Shown piece after piece: positions 21,178 to 58,616 of a stretch of 64,000 nt of DNA. This DNA is from Gonapodya sp. JEL0774 (lineage: Eukaryota). Both the position numbers and the translations under genes were made by a program. The notes beneath the pieces were generated by a model that saw nothing but the letters and a program-made list of their open reading frames with translations, searched no databases and had not been told where the DNA came from. Location: assembly GCA_027604505.1 (NCBI GenBank), contig JADIIX010000099.1, positions 1-64,000 of the forward strand. The letters are read 5' to 3'. The first letter of the stretch is position 1; every line of letters begins with the position of its first letter.

Positions 21178-24100
21178 ATGGCGACGCTGCCTCCTCCCAT
21201 CCGCCCGTCAGGCTTCCGCCGCATCTGCAAGCGGTCCTTATTTTCGTCTCTCCGTAACCGAGAGGCTGGGATGCACCTGCAGGCGGGGTCGGGAAGGCCA
21301 AACATTAACTGGGCCACGCAGAGACAGGTCACATGGAATCTAGTTCCCGATACAACCTTTTATGATTTAAGAATGCCGAATGGATGTCAACAATTGCACT
21401 TTCGGAAGTTTTCGGGCGATGGAAAGGTGGGTTTAAGTAGGGTGAGGATGGATGATGGGCTGGTGAGCGAACTCGACTCGAAGGACCAATGATACCAACC
21501 GCCCAGGGACCAAGATTGAGCGCTTGCGCACTCGGTAAAGCTGTTGTGAAGATGAAATGATGGGTGCCTGAGCTCTCCGGGGACTGATTGAGTTGACAGC
21601 GATATACTGCTATGCAGCTCACCAACACCTTCACGGATGGAGGCCGAGCAGGGGCTTTAAAGGAACAGAACAACCAGATGAACGAGGAAAGAATCAGAAG
21701 TTTCAGGAAATTGTTCGTGTTTGTGTCTTTTTTCACCCACTCCCTTGCTCACCCCATATTTCCACCTAATCACAGTATCTCGTGGCCTTCGGAAAGTCGA
21801 ACCACTCTCTCGTCCTGCTCCGTTATTTGGGTCCAGGCTGCCCCTCTGTTGCGTCCCGTAGGACCACCTCTCGCTCTCGCGGCCCAGCTGACACCTCCTC
21901 ATCAGACAGATCATCGTCCTTTACTTCTGCATCAGAAATCACTCCCTCTGCCCGTGTAGGGACGTCGACAAACGGGTTCACGTCCTCCGCTTCCCTCGCC
22001 ACGGCTGCGGAGAACGAAAGGTCTCAAGCATCTTTACCATCACTGCCGGATGGCGAAGGACTTGCGGACCAAGTGGGGAGTCCAACCGCATTTTCTGACT
22101 TCTTTGCGGTGGAGTATGAGATCAACGTGACGGCGGGAACCGAAGTGCTGTGCAAAGAGTTCTCGATGTTTACAGAGGATGGGAAATTTGTGAGTTGGAG
22201 TTAACTGTTATCTCAGTATTGTAGGGTTTTGGTGAATTGCGGATGGATTTGCACGATAACACATTTTCGAAGCACCAAGGACTGCTTAATTGATGGTGCA
22301 AACAAACTTGCTGTCCTCATTCTGTTTTCCACTTCTCCAGCTCATCCTCGCCTCCGCGGTTCCATCCTCCACACCCCCAGCTCAGGACTCTCGGACTTCC
22401 ATCCAACAGCTCGACGATGTGACGTTCTGGATTGTGGAGATATCAAGCGGTACGGTGAGTTTGCTTTTGCTATGGAGCGTTGATGAGGAGCGTGCTGTAT
22501 AAGAGTCTCCTGATTTACTCGATGTCTGTAGATTGCAGATCGACGCACGTTCAAGTCCGACTACATCTATCTCTCCAACCATGCCGGTGTTTCGCTAATG
22601 GACACCAAGCTTCTCATTACAAGCGTGCAACACCAAGCTGCATACGTTTTAGAAATTATGGTCAGTTTTCCGCTGATAATATCACCTGTTCCAAAGCGTT
22701 TGTGACTCATATCTGCGTGCACGCGCCACTTTCAGCCATCTGGTCGCCTCAATCATACCCACTCCATCGGCCCCGACGTCTTTCCCAACGACAACGAGCC
22801 TATAGGTCTACTTTCACTCCGGGAGAAAGAATGGAGGCGCGCGGCTGAGTCTTTGCCCTCCGTTCGGACTGCACCACAGCATCAGTTGCAACTTTCCCAG
22901 ACGACGGAAGTGCGATTGAGACCAGTGGGCGGCGTTCTTGGGAAGAGGCAGCGAGCCGAAGAGGATGACAGAGAAGATGCAACAGATATTCAACCCCCAA
23001 GCACGTCCGGCTTCCGTCCTGTAAAATTGTTTGGTCCACGCAGACCTACAGTTCCTTCCATCACAGCGGTATCCTCAACATCCGATCTGCTGGCCTCAAC
23101 TCCGACGATCACTTCTGGTGCAACAAGCCCACCAGGTGCATGGAGTCCCGCTTGGACAACCGGAACTGGGTCTCGGCCGACAACACGACGACTCGTCCCC
23201 GTTGACGCCATTATCCCCGCGCAAACATCTCCCACCTCCACACCTACTCGCTCTCTTCTTCGAGATGAATCGGCGTCAGATGATCTCCTTCCGGGACTGA
23301 AGCAACGTCTCATGGCGCATCTGCACCGCCTCGCTGTAGCTTCTGGAGATCCAGCCCGACTTCGATATTTCTACCTGAGCTGGGACTACTTCTCCTCCCT
23401 GGTCATGTGGCGATGTGAGTGGATGGACCAGGACACAATAGTATTCAAAATGGGTGCACCTGACTCTGTAGGGAAATCGGATCCACCACCTACTGCAGCC
23501 ACGTTTCTAATGGTGGTGGAGCTGAGTTCGGGCAAAATCTTGGGATTTCATGATTCGTGTAGTCCGGATTTGCTAGACTGGTACGAAAGAGACGACAGGT
23601 GGAGGAGGCAAGCCGCTGGAAGGGTCAATTGGTGTGGAAGTTTGGCGAATTCGGAGAGGGCGAGGGAGGCAGTCAGGAGGGCGATGTTCAGTCTATGGAA
23701 AGCGAAGAACGGAGGGTGAGTCTGTTAACTGTTGTTCTTTTCAGTTTACAAATTCGTCAACTTGATCGATGTGTTACACCCGGAAATCCAAGGTCACACC
23801 AAGCGATCAAGCGAGCACTTGCAAATGTGCCGCATAATCCGCAGTCGTACAGCGAAAGCCCCTATTGGGACCAGGAGCTCTTTAGCTACGACGAGAGAAC
23901 AATCGGTCCCTTGGAAAGGTAATTACTGGTTTCATTTTCGGTATCTGAATAGTCTGTTTTGATAAGACTTTGAAATCTCCATTTGCTGCTGATGCAGACC
24001 AAAAGTTGCTATTGACTTTCCTTACAAGTTTTTCAATCGAGTAACTGGCGAGTACGCATTTACCATCGATCCCTTCCCAACGCCATACGGGGTTGGCCCA

Positions 24101-35278: not shown

Positions 35279-37175
35279 ATGGCGACACTCTCACCTGCTC
35301 TGCTGACAAAGCTGAAAACCAATCTGAAGCTTTCCGTGGAACGACTCAAACTCGTCCACGGGAAAAAGATGGCCCAGAACAAGGCCGCGGCGCGGGAGAT
35401 CGGGGATTTGTTGAGACAAGGCAAGAGGGAGAGCGCGAGGATTCGGGTGCGTACGCGCACCGTGTAAATTCCGGGAGGGGCAGGCAGTTGGTTGTGTGGC
35501 AGATTCTGATAACCTCTCTGCTTGATGTATTCAGGTCGAGAACATCATCAGGGAAGACTACTTCATGGAGGCACTGGAGATAATGGAGATATATTGTGAC
35601 GTGTTGCTCACTCGATTTGGCCTGATCGAGTCCCTTAGGTGGGCGTTGCGGTTGGACAAAGGAGATTCCCGTCATTTCGATCAAAGGAACGAGGAACTGG
35701 GAACGTTTCGATGCCCCCGGAATATCTGTCTTTCGTACGACTGGGAACGTAATTTGGGGGAGCATTGGGACCCACCCAAGTGGTTCCAGACTTCCGGCTG
35801 CTGGACCAGCACCTGACGAGGAATGCCGCTAAGCGCTTAAGAGGCCGGTGCCTGTAGCTCAGCGGACCAATTCAAAACGTCACGGGATGCTGTTCTACTC
35901 CATCCCCGTGGTTTTTGAAGTTACTATTCCCCCAACGCACTCCACCTTTGCCCTGGACTCATTCCCATAATTTGAAGACGCCTGGACCCCGCAATCGAAG
36001 AGGCCGTTCATACAGTAATCTATGCTGCGCCGCGGTTAGCTGATATCAGGGAGTTGATGGTAGTGAGTAGGGAGTCCTGTGAGATTGCATCTCAATAGCA
36101 AACGAACGGATCAACTCGCATAAGTGCGGCCAAATGAATAAGGAGTACGTGGATAAAAGTGTGGAGTTCTTACTCACTTCATATGGGGTCACGGAACCAA
36201 TCACATCTCATGTGATCCCCGTCCCGCGAGTTGCCTTTTGACCGGAGCCGCGCGTTTAGGCTCCACCATAAATTGCACGGACTGATTTTGATGAGCTTCA
36301 CGGGCTCGGAACCTAAGTGTGTGTGTTGTGTGGTAGCGAAAAACTTCGTATCCCACTGACCCATTTTTAACCGCTTGCAATCTGTCATATCTGTGTTTTC
36401 ACGAACTTTACATGGGTACCTTCTCAAGATTCGCGATATCTTGATTGTCAAATTTGGTAAGGACGTTGGGGTTTTGGCGAGCGAGAATCGGTATGAGACA
36501 GTAAGCACAAAGGTGAGCAATGGAGACTGAAAACTTGATGAGTAACCCTTTTTCTGTTGTTGACCCTCTCTCTGAATATACCTTCTAACAATATCGCGGT
36601 GCATTTAGATTGTCACTAAACTCCAACTCCAAACTCCTCCCTTATCCCTCGTACAATCCTACCTCATCCAAATCGCCAAGCAATACGGCGTTCCCTACGA
36701 CCCGGACCCGGTTGACGACGGTCTGGACGAGTTCGGCACAGATGCCGTGCTGCTAACGGAACCAAATTTGGTGGGGTTGCCGACGCAAACGCCCTCAGAA
36801 TCTGCACCCACCTCTTCACCAGCCGCACTGAGCGCACCTACCAGAGGAGCTGCAGCGGGCCAGTCGAAACCTGCGGTGACAGCAAAGCAGACTTCCGGAC
36901 CGACTTATCCATTCAACAGTGCCGGTAGCTTTGAGATTGGGCCGGCTGTGGGTGCCGGAATGCCTGGCGCACGGCCTGGATCAGGGGCAGGGGCAGGGGA
37001 ATATGGAGGGTACAGTGGTGGATCTACAACTGGTGGAAGTGATCCGGATTATGAGAGTTTGCTCCGACGTGAGTTGCTACCATATGTCGTCGTTCCTCCT
37101 TGACACAGGGCGACAGTGACCGGTATGCGTGCGTGTTTCTTCCAAACAGGATTTGAGGCTTTGAAGAGAGGATAA
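35279..37175 (+). CDS. IST1: ESCRT-III-associated Vps4 regulator Ist1
   Basis: KLKTNLKLSVERLKL, ARIR|VENIIREDY..EALEIMEIYCDVLLTRFGLI, LDPAIEEAVHTVIYAAPR; C-terminal MIM-type DYESLLRRFEALKRG*. Confidence 0.92.
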
Positions 37176-37641
37176 TGGCGAGAACTTGACCAATTATAAA
37201 TTCCGAATTCTCAAATATTTGAAAGAACGTATGACTGGGAAGTTGATTCCAGAGTCCCTTATGTAGATGTGTGATGAGGCCATCTTTCGTTTTGACAACC
37301 TGCGCCAGGGACAACACAATAGTTCGGTCCACCAACCACTACCCATCCGAAAATTCTACTCGGGGTTCCATTGAGAAGCGTCGCGTAGAAGGTGGGACGT
37401 GATAAAGTCGGGTAAGCGTGCGAGAAACTGCGAGTGATCATCTGGGCACCAAGACAGACCTGTCGATGGGGGACTGATTGGCATTAGCCGAGTCTTGTTC
37501 GCGTACACTCGAGAACCCGCTCTTCTCCTTCAATAAGGAGTACCGCGCGAGCTTCTGTCTAGGGAATTTGGCCCCCATAAGTGTGTCCGAATGAACTCAC
37601 AATGATCGTCCAATTTCGACTTCACCTTCTCACAGGCGACA

Positions 37642-40618
37642 ATGAAAGACGAAGATAATACCCTCCGTGGGGCGTGCTGGGAGGTCTGCTGCAAATTTTG
37701 AACACTGTCTTCCGTGGTCAAAATCCACTCACCCGTACCTACGACCATCCAAGTGTGACTGCCCAGAATATGCCCACGTTGCTGCTGCTCTCCATTGTGG
37801 TGACTGTGGGCATCTCGTCACTCACCATGCGGTCGTAGACCGCCTCACACCCATTCCGCCAGTCATCATGTCTGACGGTGCTGGAGGTACTGTGTACGGC
37901 ACCCCTTTACCAATGTCCATGACCATGCAGCAGCATCAACATTTCATGATGCAGCAACAAATGATGATGGCGGGCGGAGCCACGCCGCATTTGGGATCTC
38001 TAATGCCGTCCTATGCGGCGACTGGCGTCCCCTTCCAATCTGCCAGACCTTTTGGATCGCCTGCCGGTATGAACGAGTCACTTCACCCTACTATGTACCA
38101 GATGGAGCCTATGGGCCACACCTCAAATCCCGTCTCTGGAGTTGAAGAATGGAGAACTGTGATGCAACGTTCTGATATGGTCAAGGGCACGAACAAGGAA
38201 ACCTCAGAAGTCAGCCAGGTGATTGCGGAACAGGACTCAACACCGCCTCCGCCGGGTGTGCAGTCAAACTCCGTGGCTGTACAGGAGCTGAGGCGCCGTG
38301 AGTTCGGCCCGTTAGACCTTCGTCACGTTTGAGCTCCCTACTTTGCGTACCGGTCGAAGCTCATCGCAATGTTATCCTTATCTCCTTGGTGGCAAATAGG
38401 AAAACACAATCCATCTGATGCCAGCCAGTCCAGCTCCACCTCGGCTGCTCTTACGCCTTGCGAGGCAACCATGGAACCGGTTCAAGCAAATTGCCCAACA
38501 ACCTCCCCAACGCTGCCCGCTCACTTTAGTGTCCTTTTTATCCTCCATATTAGCGTTTGGCTTGCCGCAGTATCATACCTCTTGTTCACAAGGGACCCAG
38601 TGACAAAATTCGGAAGTAAAACCGGACGCAAAGAGTGCCAAGGATCAGGAGCGGAGAAACTTATGGAAAGGTTTGGAGTATTCGGTGCGGTGAGTTTGCT
38701 TGATGTAAAGAAGATTTACTGAGCCGTACAAACACACGAGATAACGCTATTCCTCTTCGGTGCGCTCCTCCCGCGCTCCAACGGGACTATCGGCGCTTGC
38801 TAGACCGTAATGGTTCTTAGCACGCTCGTGGCAGGGTGGATATCCGTTCGTGGTATTTCTGCACACAGGAGGGCCTTGGCCAGAGTGGTGGCAGCAGTGA
38901 GTTTCAGTCACTGTATACCACTGGTCGGTACTGTGGAGCTTGCAGTTTACTAAGTCCTGCGTCTACACACACAAGTCACTGGTTCTATCAACAATTCCGT
39001 ATTTCCTTCCTGTGATTTCCACCCTCCCAATTACTCCACTGCACCTTCTTAAAGGCATATCCCCGATATATCAGTCTGTTCTCGCCGTTTCTCGCACCGT
39101 TTCTTCAGCACTCCTCCTTCTCTTTCTATCGGCTCTTCCCTCCACGGCGACTGGCCGTGATACTGTTCCTATGTTGTCTCTCTATCTCTCCTCCATTGCC
39201 GCCATTTTCTCCATCAGTGCTTCTGCCCCTTGGCGACATCTGTTGTTTGTATTTTCGATTGCGGGACATGCTTCTGTCGTCAAAGCCGTTGCGAGGTTTA
39301 TGGATGGACAATTCTGGGGAATGGCAACGTGGATACGAGTACCGGTGAAATTTGGTCTCGTGGTGAGCTGGTCAGGCTGGCATGTCGGTTTCTTTTGTAA
39401 GTCGAATCGGTTTGTCGACGGATTACACAACTAATCTCTCTCTTCCCGGCGTCAACACCCCATTGTGTTAGTGCATATCGTCGGCATTATATCTCACGAA
39501 CGATATGAAAACACCGTCGTGGTGGCGGATGTGGTGGCCAGAATTGTTTTGGTGTGTGCTTGACAAAAGGTTGTTCCTTGGTGGTTCACGCGGTCTGTTT
39601 ACGCAACAATCCTAATGACGACAGCCGCTATTAATACTCGTGACTTATACAAACCAACAAAGTGGAGCACTCGATGAACCAAGAGCACAAAATGAAATCA
39701 CTATGGAGGACAAAATAGGCACTGCGATGGATGGTCTGCTGCGAAGTGCGTCGATCCCTAAACAGTGAGCCATATAATCCGTGCTTAGAGTCCGTGGCAT
39801 TGTGGAAAGTGTATTGCGTTATCTACCCCGGGTGCCACAATCAGAGTGCTCGAAGCATTCGAAGCCGGCGACAATGCGCCCAAGTGGTCCATCAGGACTC
39901 ACGATACAGCTGCTGTGGTGATCGTTCGGATAGCAAATTACGCGGTTTTGGAAGCAAAACTCGAAGTGAGTGGCCCTAAATCTCACACGTGCTCACGCCC
40001 AACCACTGCATACCTCCTCACTCAATTCGCTCACAGTCAAAGGGAATTGAATCTTTTTTTGCCAAGTTTAAGGCTGTATATGCTAGTCTGGGCGCCGAGC
40101 GCGGCGTTATAAGCATAGATGTGAACCCCGGCACTTGGGCAGCGGTGGCTGGCTATTGTGTCGGCGAAGTCAAAGAAATGAGCCCGTCATACGCGGTAGA
40201 CTTTGCCGTCGAATTGATGAACAAAATGAAAGAAACGAAAGTGATTATGGGTGCGAAAGGTGAGATGGCGACTTCGATTGAACTTGTAATTGGGGTTACG
40301 ACTGGTGAGTCAAGGTCAAAAGAATCCCATTTCCACACCTTAAAATACAATGTGCATTGTTTAGGATCCATCACGGTGGGAGAGACAGAAGGACGCGTTT
40401 GCGCTGCAGGTCCTCCTCTCGACAATGCGTGTTTAGCAGTTCAGATGACCAAGCACTGCGGTATCTTCGTCGATGAGTCAACGTTCGAAGCCATCAAGGA
40501 TAACCCAAAATTCAGAATGAGTGGCCCGGAGATTATTGAGCGGAAAGGAGACCGAGCAATGACAACTTATCACGTCGATCTGCGATTGACAACAGAGGAA
40601 ATTGAAGTGCTTCCATAG
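37642..40618 (+). CDS. RGC paralog A: rhodopsin-cyclase-like protein with retinal Lys->Arg and a pseudo-cyclase domain
   Basis: Starts MKDEDNTLRGACWE|CDCPEY..CGDCGHLVTHH like B-D. Exons splice in frame at paralog-equivalent positions. Helix G reads ADVVARIVL; the cyclase-like C-terminus ends FRMSGPEIIERKGDRAMTTYHV. Confidence 0.8.
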
Positions 40619-40815: not shown

Positions 40816-42378
40816 TTACTCGGGAGACGTAACTTTCTTGGGCCTCTTTGAAACATCCTCAACCACTAGTTCTCCCCTTTCCCGACGAGCCTTGATCTGG
40901 TCAAGAATAATCTTTCCCCCACCTGTTTCAATCTTTTCAACGATCTGATCGGCCAGCTTCTTTGCAGACTTAACATCCCTTGTAAATGCCTCATCTGGGT
41001 ATCCTTCAACCGCCTCGGAAACGTCTGCGAGAACAGCTTCGCCCTCCGCCCTAACTTCCTCCACCCCATCAAGGGTCCACACGGCTGCAATAACTCGTAG
41101 AACCCTCCCACCATCAGCGCCGGCAATAATGTTGGTCCTCACTCCTAGGGGTACGCTGCACCCTCCTTCTAACCGCCTCATGATCTGACGCTCGCACTCA
41201 ACACGGACGCGAGTGGGACGATGTTCTAGAGAGCTTATAATCGAGACAGTGCGGGCATCGCGATTTGGGTCACGATCATTTGTTTCAGCCGCTAATCCGT
41301 CAAGTTCGACGGATGAATCACCAGAAGCAGCCAGGATACCCGATAGCGTGGTGCCACCGGCAGGATCACGGCACTCAACGGCCAGAGCACCTTGACCGAC
41401 AGCGTAAAGCGACTCTGTGTCCTCTAGAGTGTAGGAGATGACGCTTTGGAGGTCCAGTCGGAGGAGCCCGGAGCGGGCAAGGAGAAGAGCAGAGAAGGCA
41501 GGGAAGGCAGGGTCGGACGATGGTGTGTTAAGCTTAGAGAGACGGGTGAGAACGTTGCCGCGCTAGTAGACAGGCAGAAGGGTTTATTCAGGTGGAAGGA
41601 ATTGGGGATTAAATCTCAATTAGAGTGTGATTCGGTGATTCCCCAAAAAGAGAATCCTAATAACAGCGATTAAGCTACCGACTCGCTATCCGGTCGCAAG
41701 AGAGTATGGAGGAGTATGGAAGGGCTCGCGAGGATCTTCGAGTCCGATTGCAGCGTCCCACTCTCCGCTGTCAGAAGTTCTCCTTCGGCAGTGGTCCTTT
41801 CAACTCACCACATCCCTGAACACGAGATTCGGAAATTTGCGTTTCATTTGAGCGCATCTTCGGACACTGCTGGTGCCAATAACTGCGCCGTCCGGGAGGT
41901 CTTCGAGTCGTGTGATGTGAGGAGAGTCCCGCTTAATAGCGTCACTAAGCACTACACAGTCTCTGGGGTCTTCCCTCTCCAACACTGCAGCCAGTAACAT
42001 TCCCTTGGGTAACGTCGTAGGAACGTCTTTCAAGGAATGTACAACGAGATCTGCTGTGCCCGCATGAAGAGCCAGTTCAAGCTCCTTTGTGAACAGCGCT
42101 TTAGCGCCGATTTTTGAAAGAGCAACATCAAGTACTTTATCTCCAGTCGTTGCCATGGACCGGACATCGAAGGAATATTGGGGGAATCGGTTGAGGAGTT
42201 GGTTGATCACGAGATCCGTCTGCACAAGAGCCAACTTGGAGTTACGGGATCCAACATGGAATGCTGTATCGGAGTCTTTTAAAGGCATTGGTTGGTTTGT
42301 CCCATTGCCGTCGATTCCATTGATTCCAACGATTGCAGAAGAAGACGGCTCTCTGCTTCCGGTTACGGACGTTGCCAT
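40816..42378 (-). CDS. HEM3: Porphobilinogen deaminase (hydroxymethylbilane synthase)
   Basis: GSRNSKLALVQT, GDKVLDVALSKIG.K.LFTKELE, VHSLKDVP, REDPRD, GTSSVRR, AVGQGALAVECR, LEGGCSVPLG. Confidence 0.95.
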
Positions 42379-42568
42379 GGCGAATCGGTCGAAAATTGAC
42401 AAGCGTAAGGCGCCAGGCCGGTAAGTTTATGTATACTACAGCGGTCGCGGATCGAAAGCTGCGGGATAGGTTGTTTGAAAAGGCGATTCGCTTGGCTGTT
42501 CGTTTGGCGTTGTATCACCAACAACGGAGGCACACTCGAGATTTCATTCTTCATCTCCCATCAACTAA

Positions 42569-44229: not shown

Positions 44230-47114
44230 TTACATCCTACCCTCGACCCAGTAGGTCCTCATGACGCCCTTGCCCTTGATGTCCATGACTTCAGGACCAC
44301 TGAAGATAAACTTGTTCAAATCCTTAACAGCAAGGTACGTACTCTCGGTGATGTGGATGCGTCCGGCTTTGGAGGTGGACTCCATTCGCGAGGCTGTGTT
44401 GACTGTGTCGCCGACGATACAATAGTGAGGATTGAGGTCTCCCAGAAGACCAGCAATGACAGGACCTGTAAACAATGAATTTTTGTTTACGAGTTTGTAC
44501 CATTAGGAATTGCAGACAATTGCGTTCCCACCGGTGTTAAGTCCAACCCTGCTCATGATTCTGTCACCCGTCTCCGTCTTAAAGTCCTTGAGCATGTCAA
44601 GAACATCGATTGCGAAATCAACGGCCATCTCCGCATTGCGTGGGTTCTCTTTCGGGCAGCCAGCTACTCCGAGGAACGCGTCTCCAATAGTTTCGACCTT
44701 GTAGATTCCGTACTTCTTGAGAATAACATCATATTGCTTCCAGAGAGAGTCTAGCATTTGCATAGTGCCTTTAGCCTATGTTTAAGAGGAAATTAGTTGT
44801 AGCATTGACAGGTAGTTGTAACAAGTGTAGCACAAACAAGTCACACTCACATCCATTTTCTGTTGAAGTTGAGCGTAGTTGACGATGTCAGAGAAGAATA
44901 CGGTAACTTCCTCGAACTCGCGGGCATCCGTCCCCTCGCCGGCTTTGAGCTGTTTCACAACGCTTCAAGGAGGCACGGAGAACACGAAGGGGTGCGTACA
45001 GGGATCATGAAGATCAATGTTAAACACCGGCTTGAGACACATGACAGCCACTCACTCTTCTGGAATAAGCCGGGTGAGCATTGCGTCGGTCTCGGCGATG
45101 GCGGCGTCGAGCTTGTCCACCATTGCGTTGAGGCTCTCGTTCGCGGCTTCAACGACTTCCATCTTTTCCCTTTGCACGAGCTCCGTAGCGGCATTGAGCA
45201 AAACTAAAGTCTGTTATGAATTGCGTGAACAGGATTGCGACGGCAACATGACAGATATTAGGGACGGGAATGACGGATAACTGTGGAGAATCTACCGAAC
45301 TTACTGTGAGACCTTTCGCAACCATGTCAGAGCTGACATTTCCAAGCTCGTATGTATCAAAGGAGCACAAGTCCAGGAGATAGACTGGGCGAAAACAGGT
45401 GTCAGCGGATAGTGTGAAGAAGAGAAGGACAGAGTAGTGAGAAAATGGACGATGAAACAGAACAAGTCTCAACTACTCACTGAAGTACCACATTGTGAAT
45501 GACCACCAAGAATAGTTGGTCGCGAACCTTAGAAGGTACAGACTTGATTTGTCCACCTTACATTCGGTCTTCCCATTGATAGCGTCAGTATACACCTCCC
45601 ACAGCCTGGCTGTGCAAGGCATAAACGCGGCTTGCGAAATTAACATCCAAATGTCAGCGTACGGCCGCGCCACCCAAACTGCAATGCCTCCCGTGATGTT
45701 CATGATGTAAGACAACACCAAGATTGGTGTGGCCTTGTGTTTGGTCTTGGTTACGCTGAATGCAATACTCGCAAGAATAGGGCAGCAACAAGACCACTCG
45801 AGGAACCGAATCGCGTGCATGGCGGTGCCACGATACACGTCAGGAGCAGCGTAGTCCCAGCGATTGACCATGAAGACGTATGCGCCGCAACCCATAGATT
45901 GGCACTAAGTAATACGAAATTTGTAGGAAAGGACCAGGGAAGGAGAGAATGGCATGTTTGAGAAGGTAAGAAGCAGAAAAAAGAATTGCAATTAACGAGG
46001 GCAAGAGGTCGACGTACTGCCAGGACTGCCCAGGCCAAGAACCTCTTGTTCGGATCCTTCATGGTCATAAGATTAAGAAGAGTAAAGAATATGCACAGAC
46101 TGTATCCCCACTAAAGTTCAAAGGTTTATGAAAGAGAAGATATTAGTCACATCAGAAGACAATCCACAGAGAACCCCGCGCGCCTTCCACCAGCCACCAC
46201 CCGCTTTCAAAGCACTACTTACTATGCAATACGTATCATAAAGGTCTGAGTTGGGGCCTTTCTTGGGGTACGGATTCGTGGGACCATTTTTGTAAGTGTT
46301 GTAACCCATCAAGAGAGCGCCTGTCCACCACACGGTGAGGTTTCCGATCACTATGGCTGGGAATCTTTCTGGGAATGTTGGCCTGTTGTCCAGCACTTTG
46401 GCTTCCAATTTGGTCACAGGCAACTCTGGTCGAAGGAATGCCACGTTCAGCGGCGAAGATTTCAATAGCCCCCCATAGAAAGCCAAAATATTTCTTCGCG
46501 TTACCTTGGAATGTATTCACCGGGTTCACCTGCGGTGGCAGTGACGGCTTTAAAGCGGGTTTCGGCATCGCTGGCTTTGGCGTGACTGGAGCCTGAGCAG
46601 GAGCGGGCGCAAGAACCGAGGCCGGCATTGACTTTGGAGGGGGACTAGTGACACCGTGGCCATCGTCGTGCGAGTCGTGAGCTGGTGCTGACTTGCTGTG
46701 GTCTTCGTGACTGTGACCGTCGTGTGCAGTATTACCTCCGTGAGAAGGTGCACCGACAATATGAGGGTGCGGCACTGGCTGAGATGTACTTGGCTCTGTA
46801 GCAACTTGATGTTGTTGTGGCTGGAATTCCATAGGTGCCGGACCGCGAGATACAGCACTCTTCATTGCAGGGACCCCAGTGAGGCCAGCCGGATACTGTG
46901 CGGGGGCCCCCCAGGACGAGGTAGAGCCAGAATTGTCATGTTGTGGCAAAGGTGGCAGGGGATGGACGGTGAGTGGCGTGAGTCTGTCGATGACAGCATG
47001 ATGGGTGACGAGATGCCCGCAGTCGCCACAATTGATGGCGGTCTCGATGGTTGCGTACTCCGGGCAATCGCACTCCCAGCAAGCACCGCGAAGAACTTTG
47101 TCGTGATCCTTCAT
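44230..47114 (-). CDS. RGC paralog B: rhodopsin-guanylyl cyclase (CyclOp/BeGC1-type)
   Basis: N-terminal Cys/His motif; extra TM0; helix C RFLEWSCCCP; helix G SDMVAKG; coiled-coil linker; GC motifs FFSDIVNY, YKVETIGDA, PHYCIVGDTVNTASRMES, KGKGVMRTYWV. Confidence 0.93.
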
Positions 47115-47680: not shown

Positions 47681-50600
47681 TCAGATTCTATCATCGACAA
47701 AATAAGCTAAGGTTGTCACTCCTTTGATTTCTATCGGTTCTGGTCCGCTAAATCTGAACTTCCCCAGATCTTTCACCATGCTGTATGTAGTTTCGTTGAT
47801 GTGGATACGCCCGGGTTTAGAAGTGGCCTCCATACGTGAGGCGACAGTTGCAGTGTCTCCGACAACAGTGTAGTGTGGGTTCGTCTCTCCAAGGATGCCC
47901 GCAGTCACAGGGCCTGTGAAGATTGATTGCGAGAACAAACGTGTACTCAGTGATGGCCATGTGTCGTGTCAAAACAGCAAATGAGTCCTAACCTGTGTTC
48001 AGACCGACCCTAATATTGATAGGCTCACCGGCCTCTGTTCTGAAGTCTTTTATCATTGCCATGATGTCGAGGGAAAATTGGACGGCGCGTTCGGCATGGT
48101 CCGGAGTTTCGGTTGGACATCCAGCTACACCAAAAAAGGCGTCCCCAATGGTTTCAATCTTGTAAATGCCCCACTTCCTCGCAATCGCATCATACTGCTG
48201 CCAGAGGCGTTCAAGCATCTTGATCATATCCTTCGGCTGTCACGTTTCGGATTACAGTTGTTGCATGATACGGTGGCACGGGTAGATGACCAAAATGGAC
48301 AATATTAGGGTGGAAGAACAAATTAATGGAAAGAAGGGCTCACTTCGGTCCGACTGGAGAGAACAGTAAAGCTAGCAATGTCTGAGAAGAACACAGTGAC
48401 AGCCTCGAATTCGCGGGCACCTGTGTCTTGTCCACTCTTGATTTGCTGTATCACGCTATGTGTCGAAGCCGGAGAGAATTCGATCAGAAACAACGCCAGT
48501 TGTATCGTTACTTCGCTCCCAACCAGTGCTCGCACTGAAAATCAGTCAATCCAATCACGCAATCCCCATGATAAACAGAAATTGACCCTTGTGGTGCGTG
48601 AAGTAAAGTCAACTTACTCTTCTGGGATCAAACGAGCGAGAATGGCGTCCGTCTCTGCAACTTCTGCATCCAACTCCTCCACGAGCGCGTTTAGAGTGTT
48701 GTTAACTTGCTCCACCTTTTCCACAGCGAAAGTCTGAACTTGTTCGATGGACGCGTTGGTGAGAATCAAGGTCTTTGCGACGGAGTAGTATCGAAACAAA
48801 GACTTATCGACAACTGACGAGCAAAACATCAATGAGGTTTCTATAGTTACCAGTATTACTTTGGCAAAAATATCAGCGCCAATCATGCCAGCTTCAAACT
48901 GATCATGAGTCAGAATGCCACCGCAATAGACTGTGGGTAAGAACATCATTTGTTGATACATGAAGAGTTGTATTTGGACGAGATTGTGCATTGCTTACTC
49001 AAATAAGTTGTGGTGAATGTCCACCAAGCGATCATAGTGGTAACGCGAACAATCTTCAGACTCCTTGTTGGAAACCGACATTCGGTTTTCCCATCAATGG
49101 CATCAGTGTACACTATCCATAGGTTGATGATGATGTACATGAACAGTCCCTGCGATACGACAAGGGAGATGTCGGCCCAAGGTCTGGGGAAAATGGCTCC
49201 AAAGAAACCCGTCAAATCCATGAGAAAGTTCGCGAGGCGAACGTACGACACGTTGCGGCGTGTCTTGGTGATAACAAATATGATTTGAATGAGGAGAGGA
49301 CAGCAACACATCCATTCGATGAAGCGAATGGGGTGGTTGAGAGTTCCACGGAATGGATCGACGATTGCAGGGTCGAGCCGGAATATCATGATAATGTACG
49401 ACCCTATCGCCATGCCTAGACACTGTCGTGCAAACCAGGACGTTCACCTCACGTCATCAAAACGGTGTCCAATCGTTATGCTCGAACTTACGAGGAACAG
49501 CGCCAGTGATAGAAATCTCTTTTCGGGAAGCTTAGCTGTCCAATAGCTTATCAGGGCATAAACCATTCCAAAAACACACGCCCACTAAAACGGAACTGTG
49601 AGTCGAGCGCGAGGATTCGGCTAAATCAGCTCCATTTAAGCTTACAATACAAATCCAGTCGTAGGTATCGCAAGTCGGGCCTTTCAGCATGTACTGTCCG
49701 GGGAAGCCGGTCTTCCATCCCATCCAGACGCAAAATGCCGCAGAGATGCACCAATTTGTAACGTAGAAGGCCAAGATAGACGGAAACTGTTCTGGATGCG
49801 GTGGCTTCATTTGGTTGACACTTGCGGATATTGATGTATTCGTTTCGAACACTGCTTTGTTCGGCTTTTGGTGTTTGCTAATTTCATCCGTGTCCTCAAA
49901 GTTTACTTTTGGAGGCTCCATGGTTTTACCTACATAGTCATTTCCATCCGTTTATAAAAAGAAATCATGAGAAGAATCATGCAGAGACGTGGTGCTGAAT
50001 GAAGAACTGACGTTGTCTCATCTCAGACCCCTTGTTACTTTCCATGATTGGCACCAATGCAACGTCTGGTAGGCGGGGGATCGCAGTTTTTGTGATCGTT
50101 GGTGGAGATGGTGCGGTTTCTGGAACGATAGGGATTTGGATACTTGGGACAGAAGTCTGCTGGACTTCGAGCTGAGGTTGTGCTACTGTGATATTGGTTG
50201 CGATGAGCGGCTGAGGTATTGATGCTTTGTTTGGGGCTGGCGCTGGTGGCTGGGGTTCCACAACGATAGATTTATGGAAGGCATTCATTTGCGGTTTGGA
50301 CACTCCAGAACGTATTGGGATTCTCGAAGCCGGCTCTTGAAGCGCAGACGGTCCTCTGCGAAATCGCAGATAATTGAGGGTTGCGGGAATAGAAGGATCG
50401 GGACCGCATCTGCTTATACTCACGAAGGGAATGACACAGGGGCAGGTTGGCCAGCGACCGCGGTTGAAGTTCTGCTATGACGCTCGGCCAAAGCCAGTGG
50501 CGAAAGACGGCTGATGACAGCATGGTGTGTGAGCAAGTGGCCGCAATCCCCACAGTCCAGAAAATTGGTGACATGCGCAAACTCTGGGCAGTCACACTTG

Positions 50601-50713
50601 TCAGAAGAATATTAAATAGAAGCTCATTGGAATCTAGCAGCTCAGTTGGAATGCCAACTTTGAATGAATACCTTCCAGCAGGCTCCTCGCAGATTGCTAT
50701 CGAAATCCTTCAT
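47681..50713 (-). CDS. RGC paralog C: rhodopsin-guanylyl cyclase
   Basis: MKDFDSNLRGACWK|CDCPEF; helix C RFIEWMCCCP; helix G ADIFAKV; FFSDIASFT, YKIETIGDA, PHYTVVGDTATVASRMEA. Confidence 0.93.
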
Positions 50714-51493: not shown

Positions 51494-53118
51494 TCAATCA
51501 TTCTTTTTCTCAGGCTGAGAAAACGGATACCACAAGCTGATGGTCACTAGTCCAACTTCAAATTTGTGGAAGTTAGCATTCATTGAGTCAGAACGGCGAT
51601 TTCAATGTCTGACACTTACTAAGTAGCCACAGTGTCGTGTTGTCCAAGAAGCCACTTTCAGTCCAAACAGTTGGCTCAACTTTCTCAGCAACGTGATCGG
51701 CATTATCCGACAACCACCGGAGTCTGAAACCATCCGTGAATCGAGATCCTGAGGACTTATCAGATGTGCTATGTTTGCTTTGGGTTTCGACCGCTTTGGA
51801 AGATCTATCAGCTCCGCTTAGCTTCAGTCCACGAGGTAAGTTCGCGTTCGCTTGATCCGGGTGTGGGCGGTTCCAACCCTTGCCGATTGCCGACGACCAC
51901 ATCTTGTTCCAGAAACTCTCCCTTTTGGTCTCATCCTCTGTCACATTTTGGATGGTCTCAGAATGTTTAACAGTCGACGGCTCTTGTTTCTTGCTCATGT
52001 CGTCCGATTTAGATTTGAATTTAACAAACGCGTCTTGGAGTTTAGCGAGCCAATCGGATCCCGCGGACTGTTCTGAGACTTTGAAGATCTTTGAGCGTTC
52101 ATTTGGATGAGAGGATGGCACTTCGGTCATCAATGGTTGCTGTGTCGAGGGGACGGACCCTTGAGCATGCTGATAGCGTTGCAACGGTGGAATCTCTTGC
52201 CGAAGCCTATCTGATCTCAGTATAGGCCATGAAGCAGGCTGCGGTGCTTCCATTGACTCCATCGCTGCGTCACGCATGTACTGGTCGTTCACAATGCGAG
52301 ATCCACTCGCGTGATTGCGCATGTAAACGGGTTCCGTCTCAACGTGAGCACTCTGTGGAGACTGCTGTTTAAGATGCCGAAGCTCAGTAGAGAGAAATGA
52401 AATGTCGGCCGCGAGGCTCCTTATATCGGAGTTCCGCTCTTTGCGATTCGTCTCCACAGATCGCTCGAAATTCAAAGCTTCTTGAACGAAGCCTTCGTAG
52501 GCGGAGCCGACGGCTTTCTTCATTTCTATCGTGAGTTCATCAAACAGTGACTTGGTCGCGATGTTCCTGTCATGGATAAACTTTTCGAATGTGTCCAGTT
52601 TGTGTTCGAAAGCCAGCTGCCGCTCAGTTGATGCTGCAGCGAAGGAGCTCAGACCTTTCTCCAAAGCTTCATAGTTGCTTGTCAGCTTGCTCACACCCTT
52701 GAGATCGGTGAATTGTTGATGGATGGAATCAAATTGTGCACGAAGTTCTTTCGATTCACGTCTCAATGCGGATATCTCAGACACCACGTCGTTGCTAGCC
52801 CGCAAATCACCACTTCCGGGGCTTGATCCGAAGCCTTTCAGCAAGTTTAGCAACAGTAAGACAGCTGCAACGCCGATGACGGCGAGCTTCGACAGTCCTT
52901 GGAGATGGATTCATGGATTAGAGTCAGAAGGTTCCCATGATGATGATGCATTCACAAATACCTCGGGATGAGCTCTCTGAGGCTTGAAATACTCCATACT
53001 GAGCACGTTTGGTTGCGTTCGTCTTGGCGAAATCGTCTCTTGAAGATGAGAGGTGTGACATCTCAGATAAGGAAGACAGCGATCCCCCAATACTTCGAGG
53101 AACGGGTGGAGCTTCCAT
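51494..53118 (-). CDS. Paralog E1: uncharacterised TM / coiled-coil / C-terminal TM protein
   Basis: MEAPPVPRSIGGSLSSLSEM; intron; TM LAVIGVAAVLLLLNLL; heptads; W..GFLDNTTLWLL|IGLVTISLWYPFSQPEKKND*. Confidence 0.8.
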
Positions 53119-53595
53119 GTTCTCGCGTCCTCAAAATATAGACGTGATATGTAGATATACAGAAGATTTGTGATTGATCCAGGCAAACCGCGTGATGTCG
53201 AAGGTAACTTGCGATAAGGGAAGGCAGCCATCCCACTCACACTCCTCCACCAACGTGATGAAAGCCAGAGGAATACGTGACTCCACAGCTTGGTATTAAA
53301 TAACCAAAAGAAAGATTCGGGAACATTCATAGTTAGAAAGAGAGCAGACATCGGTTCTCTCAAGTCTTCGTGTTTACGATGTCTGAATGATTGAGCAAAT
53401 GGCTATGAGTAGCTTCAGAAAGTAATAATATGTAATACTAGCTGTCTCCCCTCGGGTGGTTGTTTGCATTGTTTATGTTGCAAGAATCGAGTACTGCCTG
53501 CTTGCAGATGGATGTGGGGCGCGGCCGGCAAATCTTCGCAGTTCTTCTTCAAATAATCTACTTGTCTCTGCTTCAATTCGCTGCTGGAAGTAACG

Positions 53596-55249
53596 ATGGA
53601 CGCTCCGACTATTCCTCGAAGTCTGGGAGGATCGGTTGCCTCCCTCTCTGAAATGTCCTCTTCCCTTCGAGACTACAGACAGTCGCTATTCCGCAAGTCA
53701 GACTCCATGTCAACTCCGATTAGCGATCCATCAAGAAAGGCCAAGGCCCCTAGCCTTCAGTCTGAAGAGCCTTCACCTCTACAGAAGGTCCCTCAAAGCA
53801 ATTTAGATTGGTCTGCGTTCGTACAGGGAATCGTCACCTGGGCCTCAACCGACCCCCAAGGAGCGGTCAAGGTGACCGGCTTCGTTGTCGTCGGGTTCTT
53901 TGCGCTTCTGGGGTTCTTGCAAATGTTCGGACCGAGCTCCGCATTGCCCGACAATGGAGTGGGCTCTGGTGTGGCATTATTGCAGAGGGAAGCCCATGAC
54001 CTCCGGCAACAGGTGGATTCTGTCTATCAGTTATCGGCAGGTTTCAAGGGAATCAGCAAGCTGGCTAGTAATTTTGAAGCATTGGAGAAGGGAGTGGATT
54101 CGTTTGCGGCCGCAACCACAGAGCGACAGAAGTCGATCGAGCAGAAACTCTCCATGTACGAAAAGCTCAGCAGTGACCGCCACAGCATGTCTCAAGCCCG
54201 CTATGATGAACTAAAGAGGGAAGTCAAAAACTTAGCTAGCTCGAACCACGAAACTTTTGTCCAGGAGGTGCTCAGTCTCGAACGATCCGTCGATCAAAAA
54301 TTTCAGGAGCACAGTTCCGCAATAAAGAATATCGCTGCTGACATTTCACTTCTCTCCACCGAACTCCGGAAACGTAAAGATCACCCTTTTCAAAATGCGC
54401 AGTTCGAATCGGAGCCCCCTGAAGTGCGGCACCCATCTCGGGCCTACACTCATCAGGCGCACGACATATTTTTAGGTGATGCAGACGCGGAGCCCGAGGA
54501 GTTTAGACAACAGAATCCAATGTCGCAGAAGCGCAACACTAAAGGGGACACGTTCTCCTCTGAATCAAGAAGTACGCTGGCAATGAATCTAGACTCATCG
54601 GCATGGAATGAAGGTGCCAGTGATTCAGCTCAATCAACACATCACGATCCATGGTCGACATTGGAGAGCACGTTTCCCAAACTGAAACCAACGACTATAC
54701 AAGTATCCCCGGCAACAGATTCCCAGTTTGCGGTCCTTCCAGATCCCCCCGCGAATGCCGATGAACCATATGGGCCAAGCCTATTTAACGTTATCAAGAA
54801 AGGCTTGATCTCATTCTCGAAGCGATTTGATCGTCCTTACATCGATCAAACAATGGCACACGTCGCTGATCGATTAAAACTCAATAAAGTGGAAGCACCT
54901 TCCAAGGTTGACGATTCGCATCAGGCTTCGCACTCTAAGTCTCAGAAGAAGACGCAAACGCCTCCGCTATCAGAGGAACCGTCTGGAACTCGCGTGGTTG
55001 AGGGCATTAAAATACGGGTACTGTCCGAGGAGCGTGAAACCCTTAAAAAGAACGATGAGCCAACTATTTGGTACAAGAATGGGTGGGACAACATGAGCCT
55101 GTGGCTAGTCAGTGAGTGACCACTGAGATTACTGCACCGACTGATGTGAACTGATGTGAATGATAATGTGTCCATCTCTGTTCTAAACAGTTGGGCTGGT
55201 GACCGTCACACTGTGGTATCCGTTCTTGGGTCTCGAGAAGAAGGATTAA
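53596..55249 (+). CDS. Paralog E2: uncharacterised TM / coiled-coil / C-terminal TM protein
   Basis: 507-aa ORF MDAPTIPRSLGGSVASLSEM; TM VTGFVVVGFFALLGFL; heptads; WYKNGWDNMSLWLV|IGLVTVTLWYPFLGLEKKD*. Confidence 0.85.
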
Positions 55250-55930: not shown

Positions 55931-58616
55931 ATGAGAGACTTGGACAACACTCTGCGAGGTGCCTGTTGGGAGGTTGGTTTGAACGCGTCTACATCAGAAT
56001 CACTGCCCCGTACTGATTCTCCCTATGCAAGTGCGACTGTCCAGAATTCGCTCATGTCACGAAAGCTTTGAATTGTGGAGATTGTGGGCATCTCCTCACT
56101 CACCATGCCGTAATCGATCGCCTCTCTCCGGTTTCTATGTTAGAGCTTCACCAGAGGGCGTCATCCGTCAGATCCAGGCGGCAGTCAGCCAAAAGCATCC
56201 CCCAGTCTGCATACGGATTCATGACTGCCATCCCTATTCAGCCTGCCCAAACCGGACCACATTCACATGACAGCCATATCGTGTCGGCGGTTTCTCCAAA
56301 CCCTTCCCACTCATTGAGTCCATCTAAATCTCCACTGCCAGGGCCAGCAAAGCCAAGCGTGAATAAAAATGCTGCAGAGCACCAACCTGTCGTGTGTCAG
56401 CCAGTCGTCACAATTCAGGAAACAAGGAACACAGAAAATGCCCGATTCCCAGAGCGAAAAATGGAATACAATCTCCCATCTCATAATAATTCTTCGCTAG
56501 GCAATGAAGAGATCGTGACCCGGCACTTACCCACTGTCAATTCAAAGAAACCTCCGCAGCCGGAGCAGTTTCCAGGCATTTTAGCGTTCTATGTTACCAC
56601 CTGGTGTATTTCTGCTGGCGCTTGCGTTTGGATGGCCTGGAAATTGAACTTCCCGGGCAAAACCATTCCGAAAGGTCCTGATTGTGACTTTTATGACTCG
56701 CACTGCATTGTACGTTCCGTCTCGGAATCTGGTTTGGACCGTGAAGGTTTTCTCATGAGCATCATTTATACAGTGGGCTTTTGTTTTCGGCATGGTTTAC
56801 GCGATGATTTCTTACTCATCAACACGGCTCCCTGAGAAGAGATTCTTGGCTTTGGCGCTTTTCCTTGTGAGTACATGTTCTCAGGCGACTACCATCTATC
56901 TACAAAGTTTTTACTTAACACTGATGCCTCTTGACATGCCAACAGTGCTTGGCCATGGAAACTTGCGCCTATGTCCTAATGATTTACAGATTGGACCCCG
57001 CATTCGTCGATCCGTTTCATGGAAACATCAGTCACCCATCGCGCTTTATTGCGTGGATGTGCACATGTCCTCTATTGATTCAAACTATTTTCGTCGTGAC
57101 AAAGACGCGGCGGGATGTTTCTTACGTCCGCCTTGCAAACTTCTTCGTGGACTTGGCTGGCTTCTGCTGTTCTTTGTTCCCGAGACCTTGGGCCGAACTC
57201 TTCGTTCTCCTTGCAGTGTCGAATTTCTTTTATGTAATAAAGAACCTTTGGCTCGCTTATTCGGAAGCCATTGATGGAAAAACCGGATGTCGGTACCCAA
57301 GAGGAAGTTTAAAGATACTGCGCATCACTACAATTGTGTCTTGGACAGCATTTCCAGTGACTTACCTTGGTGAGTGTAGCTCTGATCCGTCTTTTCTTGT
57401 GAATGGTGCTCTTGATTTGGTTTTCTGTCTCTTCGGCAGCCTACGCTTTCGGGTACATCACGCACAGCCAATTCGAGGCAGGCATCACAGTCGCGGATAT
57501 ATTTGCGAAGTTAGTTTTGGTGAGAACAGAGAGTGTACTCGACCACTCTTCAATATGGCACGGTAACAATTTGTTCCCTCCTTTAGACGTTGATTCTCAC
57601 CAACGCGTCTATTGAACAAGTGCATACAGTTCAAGTAGAGACAGTGGAAAACGTCAATACTGCTCTTCATGAGTTAGTGGAGGAGTTGGATGCGGAAATC
57701 GCGGAAACTGACGCGATTCTCGCCCGTTTGATCCCAGATGAGTGAGTAACTTTAATGACGAGGGCACATGCACATGTCCTGGACGAAAATGTGCTGAGCG
57801 AGTCATAGTCCTGATGTACGGGTTTACTCCTCCCTCCCTCTCTCTTGTCAGAGTAATCCAGCAACTTAAAAACGGTGAGGCGACAGACGCTCGCGAATTC
57901 CCGTCTGTCACCGTCTTTTTCTCGGATATTGCCAGCTTTACTGTTCTTTCTGGCCGGACGGAAGTGAGTGCCTGGATTCAACCTCAGCGATATTTGCTAC
58001 AATGTTGAACCCGAACCGTTTTCTTCTCACATTCGACGGATGGAAACTCCTGAACAGCCAAAAGAAATGATTAAGATGCTCGAACGCTTGTGGCAACACT
58101 ACGATGCGATCGCGAGGAAGTGGGGAATTTACAAGATTGAAACTATCGGTGACGCCTTTTTTGGCGTGGCGGGGTGTCCAACTGAAACTCCAGACCATGC
58201 TGAGCGTGCAGTACAGTTCTCAATTGACATCATGGCAATGATTAAAGACTTCAGGACCGAGGCAGGCGAGCCCATCAATATCAGGATTGGTTTGAATACA
58301 GGTGAGCGTTCTGGTAGAATTGCATCCGATTTCGTTCCAGAGAAGTTACCACGGTTGGTAACGTCATTTCCTCCACTTTGCAGGACCTGTAACTGCCGGT
58401 ATTCTCGGCGAGACAAACCCACACTACACCGTAGTCGGAGACACAGCCACAGTCGCGTCTCGAATGGAGGCATCGTCTAAGCCCGGTCGAATTCATATTA
58501 ACGAGACCACTTACAATATGGTGAAGGATCTTGGCAAGTTCAAATTGAGCGGGCCGGATCCCGTGGAGATCAAAGGTGTGACCTCCATGACATACTGGGT
58601 GGACGGGAGACTGTGA
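55931..58616 (+). CDS. RGC paralog D: rhodopsin-guanylyl cyclase with Ala at the helix-C counterion site
   Basis: MRDLDNTLRGACWE|CDCPEF; helix B CLAMETCAY; helix C RFIAWMCTCP; helix G ADIFAKL; FFSDIASFT, YKIETIGDA, PHYTVVGDTATVASRMEA; ends YWVDGRL*. Confidence 0.93.

Follow-up and report, generated by a model that had tools for sequence, protein, structure and literature searches.

What becomes of a light-driven guanylyl cyclase that has lost the lysine that holds retinal together with its catalytic residues, while its frame stays open among better-preserved relatives? The question is raised by the window analysed here, a 64,000-nt stretch of a Gonapodya sp. JEL0774 contig, in which a six-frame reading finds four genes resembling rhodopsin-guanylyl cyclases (RGCs), called A to D as in a first-pass annotation of the same DNA. 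Gene A (37642..40618, + strand; 10 exons, 750 aa) is an RGC paralog without the retinal lysine and with a degenerate catalytic site. By alignment, paralog B (44230..47114, − strand; KAJ3338019.1, P0003) carries all retinal and catalytic residues. Paralog C (47681..50713, − strand) keeps the retinal Lys and the metal-binding Asp residues and has Thr at the Asn of the NxxxR motif and at the guanine-site Cys, and paralog D (55931..58616, + strand) is like C with, in addition, Ala at the helix-C counterion; the phosphate Arg is kept in both. With the metal Asp pair kept and these two Thr, the cyclase halves of C and D resemble that of NeoR, and B is complete. A porphobilinogen deaminase (HemC) gene (40819-42426, − strand) separates A from B and is oriented tail-to-tail with A. 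C with its upstream gene (51591-52910, − strand) and D with its upstream gene (53557-55116, + strand) form an inverted two-gene duplication, the proteins of the upstream genes being 35% identical, with a membrane segment, a coiled-coil-like region and no Pfam family. Other neighbours in the window are a DET1-like gene (22706-23716) and genes for a TPR protein, an FAD oxidoreductase and an F-box protein, and a retroelement integrase fragment is found near 1963-2358.

The exons of A, predicted from coordinates on the + strand, are 37642-37683, 37754-38297, 38400-38689, 38804-38896 and 38976-39396 (exons 1 to 5) and 39472-39551, 39625-39764, 39845-39965, 40037-40304 and 40365-40618 (exons 6 to 10); together they give 2253 nt of coding sequence, or 750 codons, with no internal stop, and all nine introns are GT-AG. 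The same gene-building procedure reproduces B identically to the NCBI protein. At least eight of the nine introns of A stand at paralog-equivalent positions: the last seven are identical to those of B, C and D in alignment column and phase, intron 1 (37684-37753) is common to C and D and absent from B, and intron 2 (38298-38399) is aligned with one C intron, but in a region that aligns poorly. The exons of 93 nt (31 codons) and 80 nt are as long in A as in B, C and D; the five others of the last seven differ in length between A and B (−3, −15, +9, +24 and +18), each time by a multiple of three. For intron 4 there are three in-frame AG acceptor candidates (38954, 38975 and 39074), of which 38975 gives an exon at most one codon off those of the paralogs. 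A G at donor position +5 is present in 9/9 introns of A, 7/8 of B, 8/10 of C and 8/8 of D, and a branch-like motif in 2/9 introns of A and in four of each paralog. Stops, frameshifts and lost splice sites, the marks of a pseudogene, were looked for in A: there are no stops, nine of nine introns are GT-AG, and the length changes are in frame. The first-pass reading of an open frame with introns at paralog-equivalent positions, the 31-codon exon included, is thus borne out (no stops, 9/9 GT-AG, at least eight introns matched), and at the level of sequence A is confirmed as a real, unbroken RGC paralog with predicted splicing.

Annotation hides such genes, A being filed as IST1. The 944-aa NCBI model KAJ3338016.1 (P0001), named IST1, is the upstream IST1 gene fused to A (35279-40618 of the window, with the end of IST1 near 37100); Pfam places Ist1 at residues 13-176 and Guanylate_cyc at 749-931. 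Compared with our model, it leaves out exons 1 and 4 entirely and the first parts of exons 2 and 5, and the exon junction sets agree for six of the last seven. The 1201-aa model KAJ3338020.1, which begins with the gene upstream of C, is probably a fusion like KAJ3338016.1. In the supplement of a 2023 RGC survey (PMC10622942), A is absent among the four ‘Gonapodya’ rows, which are two G. prolifera genes, B and one 1201-aa JEL0774 model.

All nine non-self matches of A are RGCs or proteins holding an RGC part, and a rhodopsin-derived domain with the extra segment TM0, a class III cyclase domain and a gene structure common to the paralogs together identify it, by sequence, as an RGC by descent. 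Its place among the paralogs is less clear-cut than the first-pass annotation had it. A tree of 12 rows places A beside B+C+D with low support, at the end of a very long branch (7.28 changes per column); topology tests reject neither A+B (p-AU 0.295) nor A+C+D (p-AU 0.275), and derived sites common to A and B (15/138) are matched by those common to A and C/D (11/89; p 0.83). The proposed derivation from the B lineage is therefore not upheld. Of the markers on which it had been based, only the NYA...KG stretch points to B, while CPEY, which occurs in the Blastocladiella and Catenaria RGCs (BeRGC and CaRGC), and the C-terminal spacing are ancestral, since outgroups carry both. A is not a NeoR subunit, as these have the retinal Lys with a counterion triad and donate the metal Asp while missing NxxxR, and A has lost both Lys and Asp; it also falls apart from the NeoR-like row P0007 in the tree. 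Descriptively, A is an opsin-related protein (ORP), a type-1 opsin without the Schiff-base Lys, but because its relatives are RGCs it lies outside the haloarchaeal and Dikarya ORP clades.

The residues lost from A include those of the retinal site. The Schiff-base lysine position of helix G (Lys467 in B) is Arg487 in A, encoded by AGA at 39540..39542 (+ strand), as the first-pass annotation had read it. The comparison comprised 25 rows (B, C, D, 13 stored proteins and nine reading frames from eight metagenome loci, several of them near-duplicates), and Lys occupies this column in 24/24 rows with a letter there. A has no other mid-membrane Lys, save K426 at a helix end. The helix-C residues Glu338 (the counterion), Trp339 and Pro344 of B become S362, R363 and A368 in two alignments; the register varies between alignments, and in all three the R-x-x-E-W...P signature, already noted as missing, is absent from A. 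One metagenome contig (L006:5-2938) holds an RGC with an N-terminal extension of about 500 residues that resembles a helical-repeat domain.

Losses in the cyclase are equally broad, and here too the early reading of both metal Asp and the transition-state Asn/Arg as gone holds good. Asp547 and Asp591 of B, the metal ligands, are Arg565 (39927-29) and Gly609 (40130-32) in A; the phosphate Arg635 is Val661; and Asn663 and Arg667 of NxxxR are Asp686 (40421-23) and Leu690 (40433-35). Five catalytic residues are thus missing. The roles assigned to the cyclase residues follow published work on CaRGC (D457, D501, R545, K612, R577 and C566; PMC8575461) and on RGC1/NeoR (PMC12264004). Retained in A are the guanine-site Cys679 (40400-02), an Asp605 (40118-20) in place of Glu587 of B, the phosphate Lys727, the helix-G Asp483 and Pro535 of the CTE. 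The Cys, Lys and Glu-to-Asp retentions in the cyclase lie within the 38% background retention. Among the other rows the metal Asp are kept in 21/22 and 22/23 and the NxxxR Asn in only 17/23, so among RGC paralogs part-degenerate cyclases are common and lysine loss is not. The RGC paralogs P0008, P0010 and P0012, from other fungi or metagenomes, have part-degenerate cyclase motifs with the retinal lysine intact. None of the features of a working RGC that were sought (the Schiff-base lysine, helix-C Glu/Trp/Pro, two metal Asp, the phosphate Arg and NxxxR) is present in A, from which we infer that its product is blind and catalytically inactive; the original description of an intact, blind, catalytically dead and retained protein is supported as far as sequence can speak. 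A literature search, with most subscription journals outside its scope, found no lysine-less RGC.

The protein nevertheless retains the outline of an RGC. A low-complexity Pro/Gln/Met/Ser spacer (37856..38520, + strand), which holds intron 2 and is 11-18% identical to the paralogs, precedes a rhodopsin-derived membrane domain of eight segments, TM0-TM7 (38521..39650, exons 3-7; eight hydropathy peaks). A profile built from the membrane domains of 19 RGCs other than A gives this domain 31.8 bits; the best of 1000 shuffles reaches 8.8 and 1000 block shuffles reach at most 19.5. The cyclase-fold domain (39845..40618, exons 8-10) is recognised as class III by PF00211 at 22.1 bits, against a cut-off of 21.9. 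A structure predicted for residues 357-750 (mean pLDDT 65.6) shows five membrane helices and a class III cyclase domain, with a linker of low confidence between them, although the alignment behind it held 13 canonical RGC rows and biases it toward the canonical fold. The modelled cyclase matches RGC cyclase structures with a TM-score of 0.87, and matches RGC cyclase 5oyh with Z 21.4 and an rmsd of 2.4 over 180 residues, matches with this Z covering only residues 179-386 of the model. A is thus predicted to keep the class III cyclase fold. An Atlas search with exon 5 gave no usable match.

The linker is the exception. Exon 7 (39625..39764, + strand) encodes a degenerate signalling-helix linker (pLDDT below 50) that ends in the CTE motif SIP and is 49 residues long, with two Pro and three Gly, against a length of 54 in the three paralogs and of 47 in each of the 21 other rows. 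The B, C and D linker exons (e.g. 45056-45210, − strand) are exactly one heptad longer, 54 against 47 residues, than those of all 21 non-Gonapodya rows. The beta4-beta5 arm of the A cyclase is three residues short.

What such a protein might do depends on the partners available to it. In class III cyclases the active site sits between two subunits, the two metal Asp coming from one and the base-reading residues and NxxxR from the other. By analogy with RGC1 and NeoR, B would give the base half and C or D the metal half; from the sequences B/C and B/D heterodimers are likely, as are heterodimeric RGCs of independent origin in Monoblepharidomycota; the 2023 survey files the RGCs of this group as homodimeric RGC(b) (PMC10622942). 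Helix C of D reads RFIAW (57049-57054, + strand), with Ala at the primary counterion, a substitution also found in CcNeoR4, and D is possibly UV-absorbing or retinal-free. Our preferred reading, to which we give a probability of about 0.4, is that A acts as a silent partner of B, C or D and reduces their light-driven cGMP output. It would supply neither half-site complete, leaving any A-containing dimer without a working site; with the base-half residues D605, C679 and K727 it might compete for C or D or trap GTP unproductively, and its N-terminal Cys/His motif would bring it to the membrane or to the complex of its paralogs. Site use in RGC1/NeoR is asymmetric (PMC12264004).

Counted in support of a silent subunit are the open frame, the splice sites, the Cys/His motif, the branch codon model described below, the predicted cyclase fold, and the retained CTE Pro and helix-G Asp. 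Counted against it are the linker, the shortened beta4-beta5 arm, weak constraint, the lack of a detected ortholog, the background-level retention of the Cys, Lys and Glu-to-Asp positions, the activity of CaRGC truncated before residue 44 and a fold model driven by canonical rows. Of these the linker, which reads out of heptad register with B, C and D and holds Pro and Gly, weakens the case for a tidy heterodimer, and it likewise weakens the case for sensor signalling through a coiled coil. A precedent by analogy is NPR-C, a silent relative that suppresses the cGMP output of NPR-A and NPR-B via heterodimerising (PMC10334801), as A may do; unlike A, NPR-C is without a cyclase domain altogether, binds ligand and has an unrelated receptor part. 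An analogy with Leishmania RAC-B was dropped, since the literature passages gave no confirmation.

The part of A that has changed least is its N-terminus, where a Cys/His motif, C-x2-C-x-C-x11-C-x2-C-x-H-x3-HH (37642..37855, + strand), split by intron 1, is a putative metal-binding module identified by alignment. Its Cys/His pattern suggests metal binding, putatively of zinc. The motif matches no Pfam family, its predicted model has a pLDDT of 51.8, an Atlas search with it returned unnamed clusters only, and in the literature search described above no zinc motif in an RGC was found. It is common to BeRGC and CaRGC, and CaRGC is functional without residues 1-43 (PMC8575461). In A it keeps 30 of the 31 columns that are invariant in B, C and D, as the first-pass annotation’s “nearly invariant” implied, compared with 15/66 in the membrane domain, 7/28 in the linker and 40/104 in the cyclase.

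Recent copying is not the source of this conservation, because the four-fold sites of the motif differ at 11/18 from D, 12/17 from B and 14/16 from C. Intron 1 of A and D are somewhat alike (z 3.3; 8/2000 shuffles); among 458 unrelated intron pairs, two reach 3.6 and 3.2. Since such pairs score alike and the four-fold sites are near saturation, gene conversion from D is not accepted, though an old event may remain.

Constraint so concentrated in the motif lends itself to another reading, one that we think somewhat doubtful, in which A serves as a scaffold or decoy anchored in the membrane: the motif would bind an eyespot or trafficking partner common to the real RGCs, and the rest would be an anchor with a folded, non-toxic appendage, with no cyclase pairing. 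The broken linker fits such a role, as do membrane segments that stay hydrophobic and whose changes are more conservative than neutral (0/2000 simulations, with some bias from the alignment). Less easily reconciled with a scaffold are a retained cyclase fold of 200 residues, together with the CTE and helix G, and 0-fold cyclase sites that have still changed less than third positions (p 0.022). The Rhizophydiales have a NeoR-like rhodopsin without linker and cyclase (PMC10622942), so truncation is possible, which softens the objection from the retained cyclase.

How far selection has maintained the rest of A bears both on the silent subunit and on an unlikely alternative, that A diverged under selection in the distant past and has only very lately become a pseudogene, or persists as an unexpressed relic evolving almost neutrally. 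Identity to the paralogs is 34-38/48 in the motif, 34-40/236 in the membrane part and 53-54/184 in the cyclase, that is, about 29% in the cyclase and 14-17% in the membrane domain; B and C share 112/186 residues of the cyclase. In simulations of neutral substitution, in which indels were left uncounted, frame and splice sites stayed intact in 113, 42, 4 and 0 of 1000 runs at 0.02, 0.03, 0.05 and 0.1 changes per site. As drift of 0.05 per site breaks 996/1000, nearly all the divergence of A arose under selection for an open frame; very recent death, after drift up to about 0.02-0.03 per site (where 113 and 42 per 1000 survive), is compatible with the intact gene and speaks for a young relic. 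So do the very long branch (7.3 changes per column) and the outcome of the ortholog searches, which found no ortholog: apart from the fused model of A itself, all matches were canonical RGCs, 22-30% identical; these searches were insensitive, as one with the motif found B only and missed the G. prolifera genes in the survey supplement (PMC10622942).

Codon-level comparisons point to selection, at weak strength. In a branch codon model fitted to 522 codons, neutrality of A (omega=1) is rejected (2dL 38.9, p 4.5e-10), but with dS of A at its upper bound the omega is unreliable, and the motif alone gives p 0.69. In linker plus cyclase, 0-fold sites changed less often (112/255) than degenerate third positions (18/26; p 0.022), while in the membrane part the two are alike (70/130 and 3/7; p 0.71) and in the motif p is 0.09. 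Changes as conservative as those of A arose under neutrality in 0/2000 simulations for the membrane part, 96/2000 for the cyclase and 1583/2000 for the linker, so that membrane changes appear more conservative than neutral, cyclase changes marginally so and linker changes not; the alignment itself favours conservative pairs, and we take this result as soft. By the site counts, constraint on A is weak, and B, C and D are far more strongly constrained. For A to be a relic, moreover, the gene would have to have been caught within a short time window, with splice signals as good as those of its paralogs and a motif with one change in 62 0-fold sites, equal to D.

The emptied retinal pocket suggests a distinctly unlikely role, that of a non-light sensor which binds another ligand there and passes the signal allosterically to a catalytic partner. 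The only charged residues in mid-membrane in A are R363, D483 and R487, all at former pocket positions, with the helix-C register uncertain. Lys-less opsins of haloarchaea, which include a Lys-to-Arg group, are proposed to sense non-light cues, and two purified Lys-less opsins bound no retinal (PMC4915679). Yet of the structured parts of A none is less conserved than the membrane domain (15/66), the signal-carrying linker is broken, and A is without catalytic output of its own. A larger conjecture, which we rate as a long shot, would make the Gonapodya genes a four-gene heteromeric RGC system independent of that of Chytridiales, in which B paired with NeoR-like C or D makes cGMP in light and A, the first lysine-less RGC, is a chemoreceptor-like pseudo-cyclase. 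An anionic ligand in its emptied pocket (Arg363, Arg487 and Asp483) would then let A control the light pathway through the withdrawal or release of subunits. That A instead activates or completes a partner enzyme in the manner of a prozyme is very improbable: when the non-catalytic site of RGC1/NeoR was deprived of a metal Asp, activity rose ninefold (PMC12264004), so a metal-less site need not inhibit, but there the other site is complete, whereas with A both sites would miss either the metal Asp pair or NxxxR.

Among described proteins the closest counterpart of the proposed silent subunit is CcNeoR4 of Chytriomyces confervae, which bound no retinal when purified, was inactive in all pairs tested and whose role was called puzzling (Broser et al. 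2023, PMC10622942). Like A it is a clustered RGC paralog without the metal- and guanine-binding residues; unlike A it keeps the helix-G lysine and, in its supplement row, is without the Cys/His motif, and it is without the CTE that A keeps (PMC10622942). CcNeoR4 also belongs to the NeoR clade of Chytridiales, and A to a separate origin in Monoblepharidomycota and is far more diverged. With the homodimeric RGC(b)/CyclOp proteins BeRGC and CaRGC and with heterodimeric RGC(a)/NeoR, A shares the Cys/His N-terminus, eight membrane segments, linker, CTE and class III fold, but it differs from both in having no Schiff-base Lys, counterion, metal Asp or NxxxR and in a linker length off register. NeoR is without NxxxR only and donates the metal Asp, RGC1 giving the base-reading residues in R. 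globosum (PMC12264004). The ORPs of haloarchaea and fungi share with A a microbial opsin without the Schiff-base Lys, which haloarchaeal group A also replaces with Arg; these, however, are stand-alone 7-TM proteins (PMC4915679), while A, an enzyme-rhodopsin with eight TM segments that descends from an RGC, carries a dead cyclase.

The dead RGC as a kind therefore has a precedent in CcNeoR4, and A, known from one genome, is a second and more extreme case beside that unexplained protein. Because A keeps almost solely the Cys/His motif unchanged, it makes the function of that motif directly testable; the RGCs that have the motif range from that of Blastocladiella to the chytrid RGC(a), and CaRGC catalysis does not need it. 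Should A prove to be expressed and to inhibit its paralogs, fungal zoospore vision would have in it a natural means of gain control, and RGC optogenetics a genetically encoded inhibitor ready for use.
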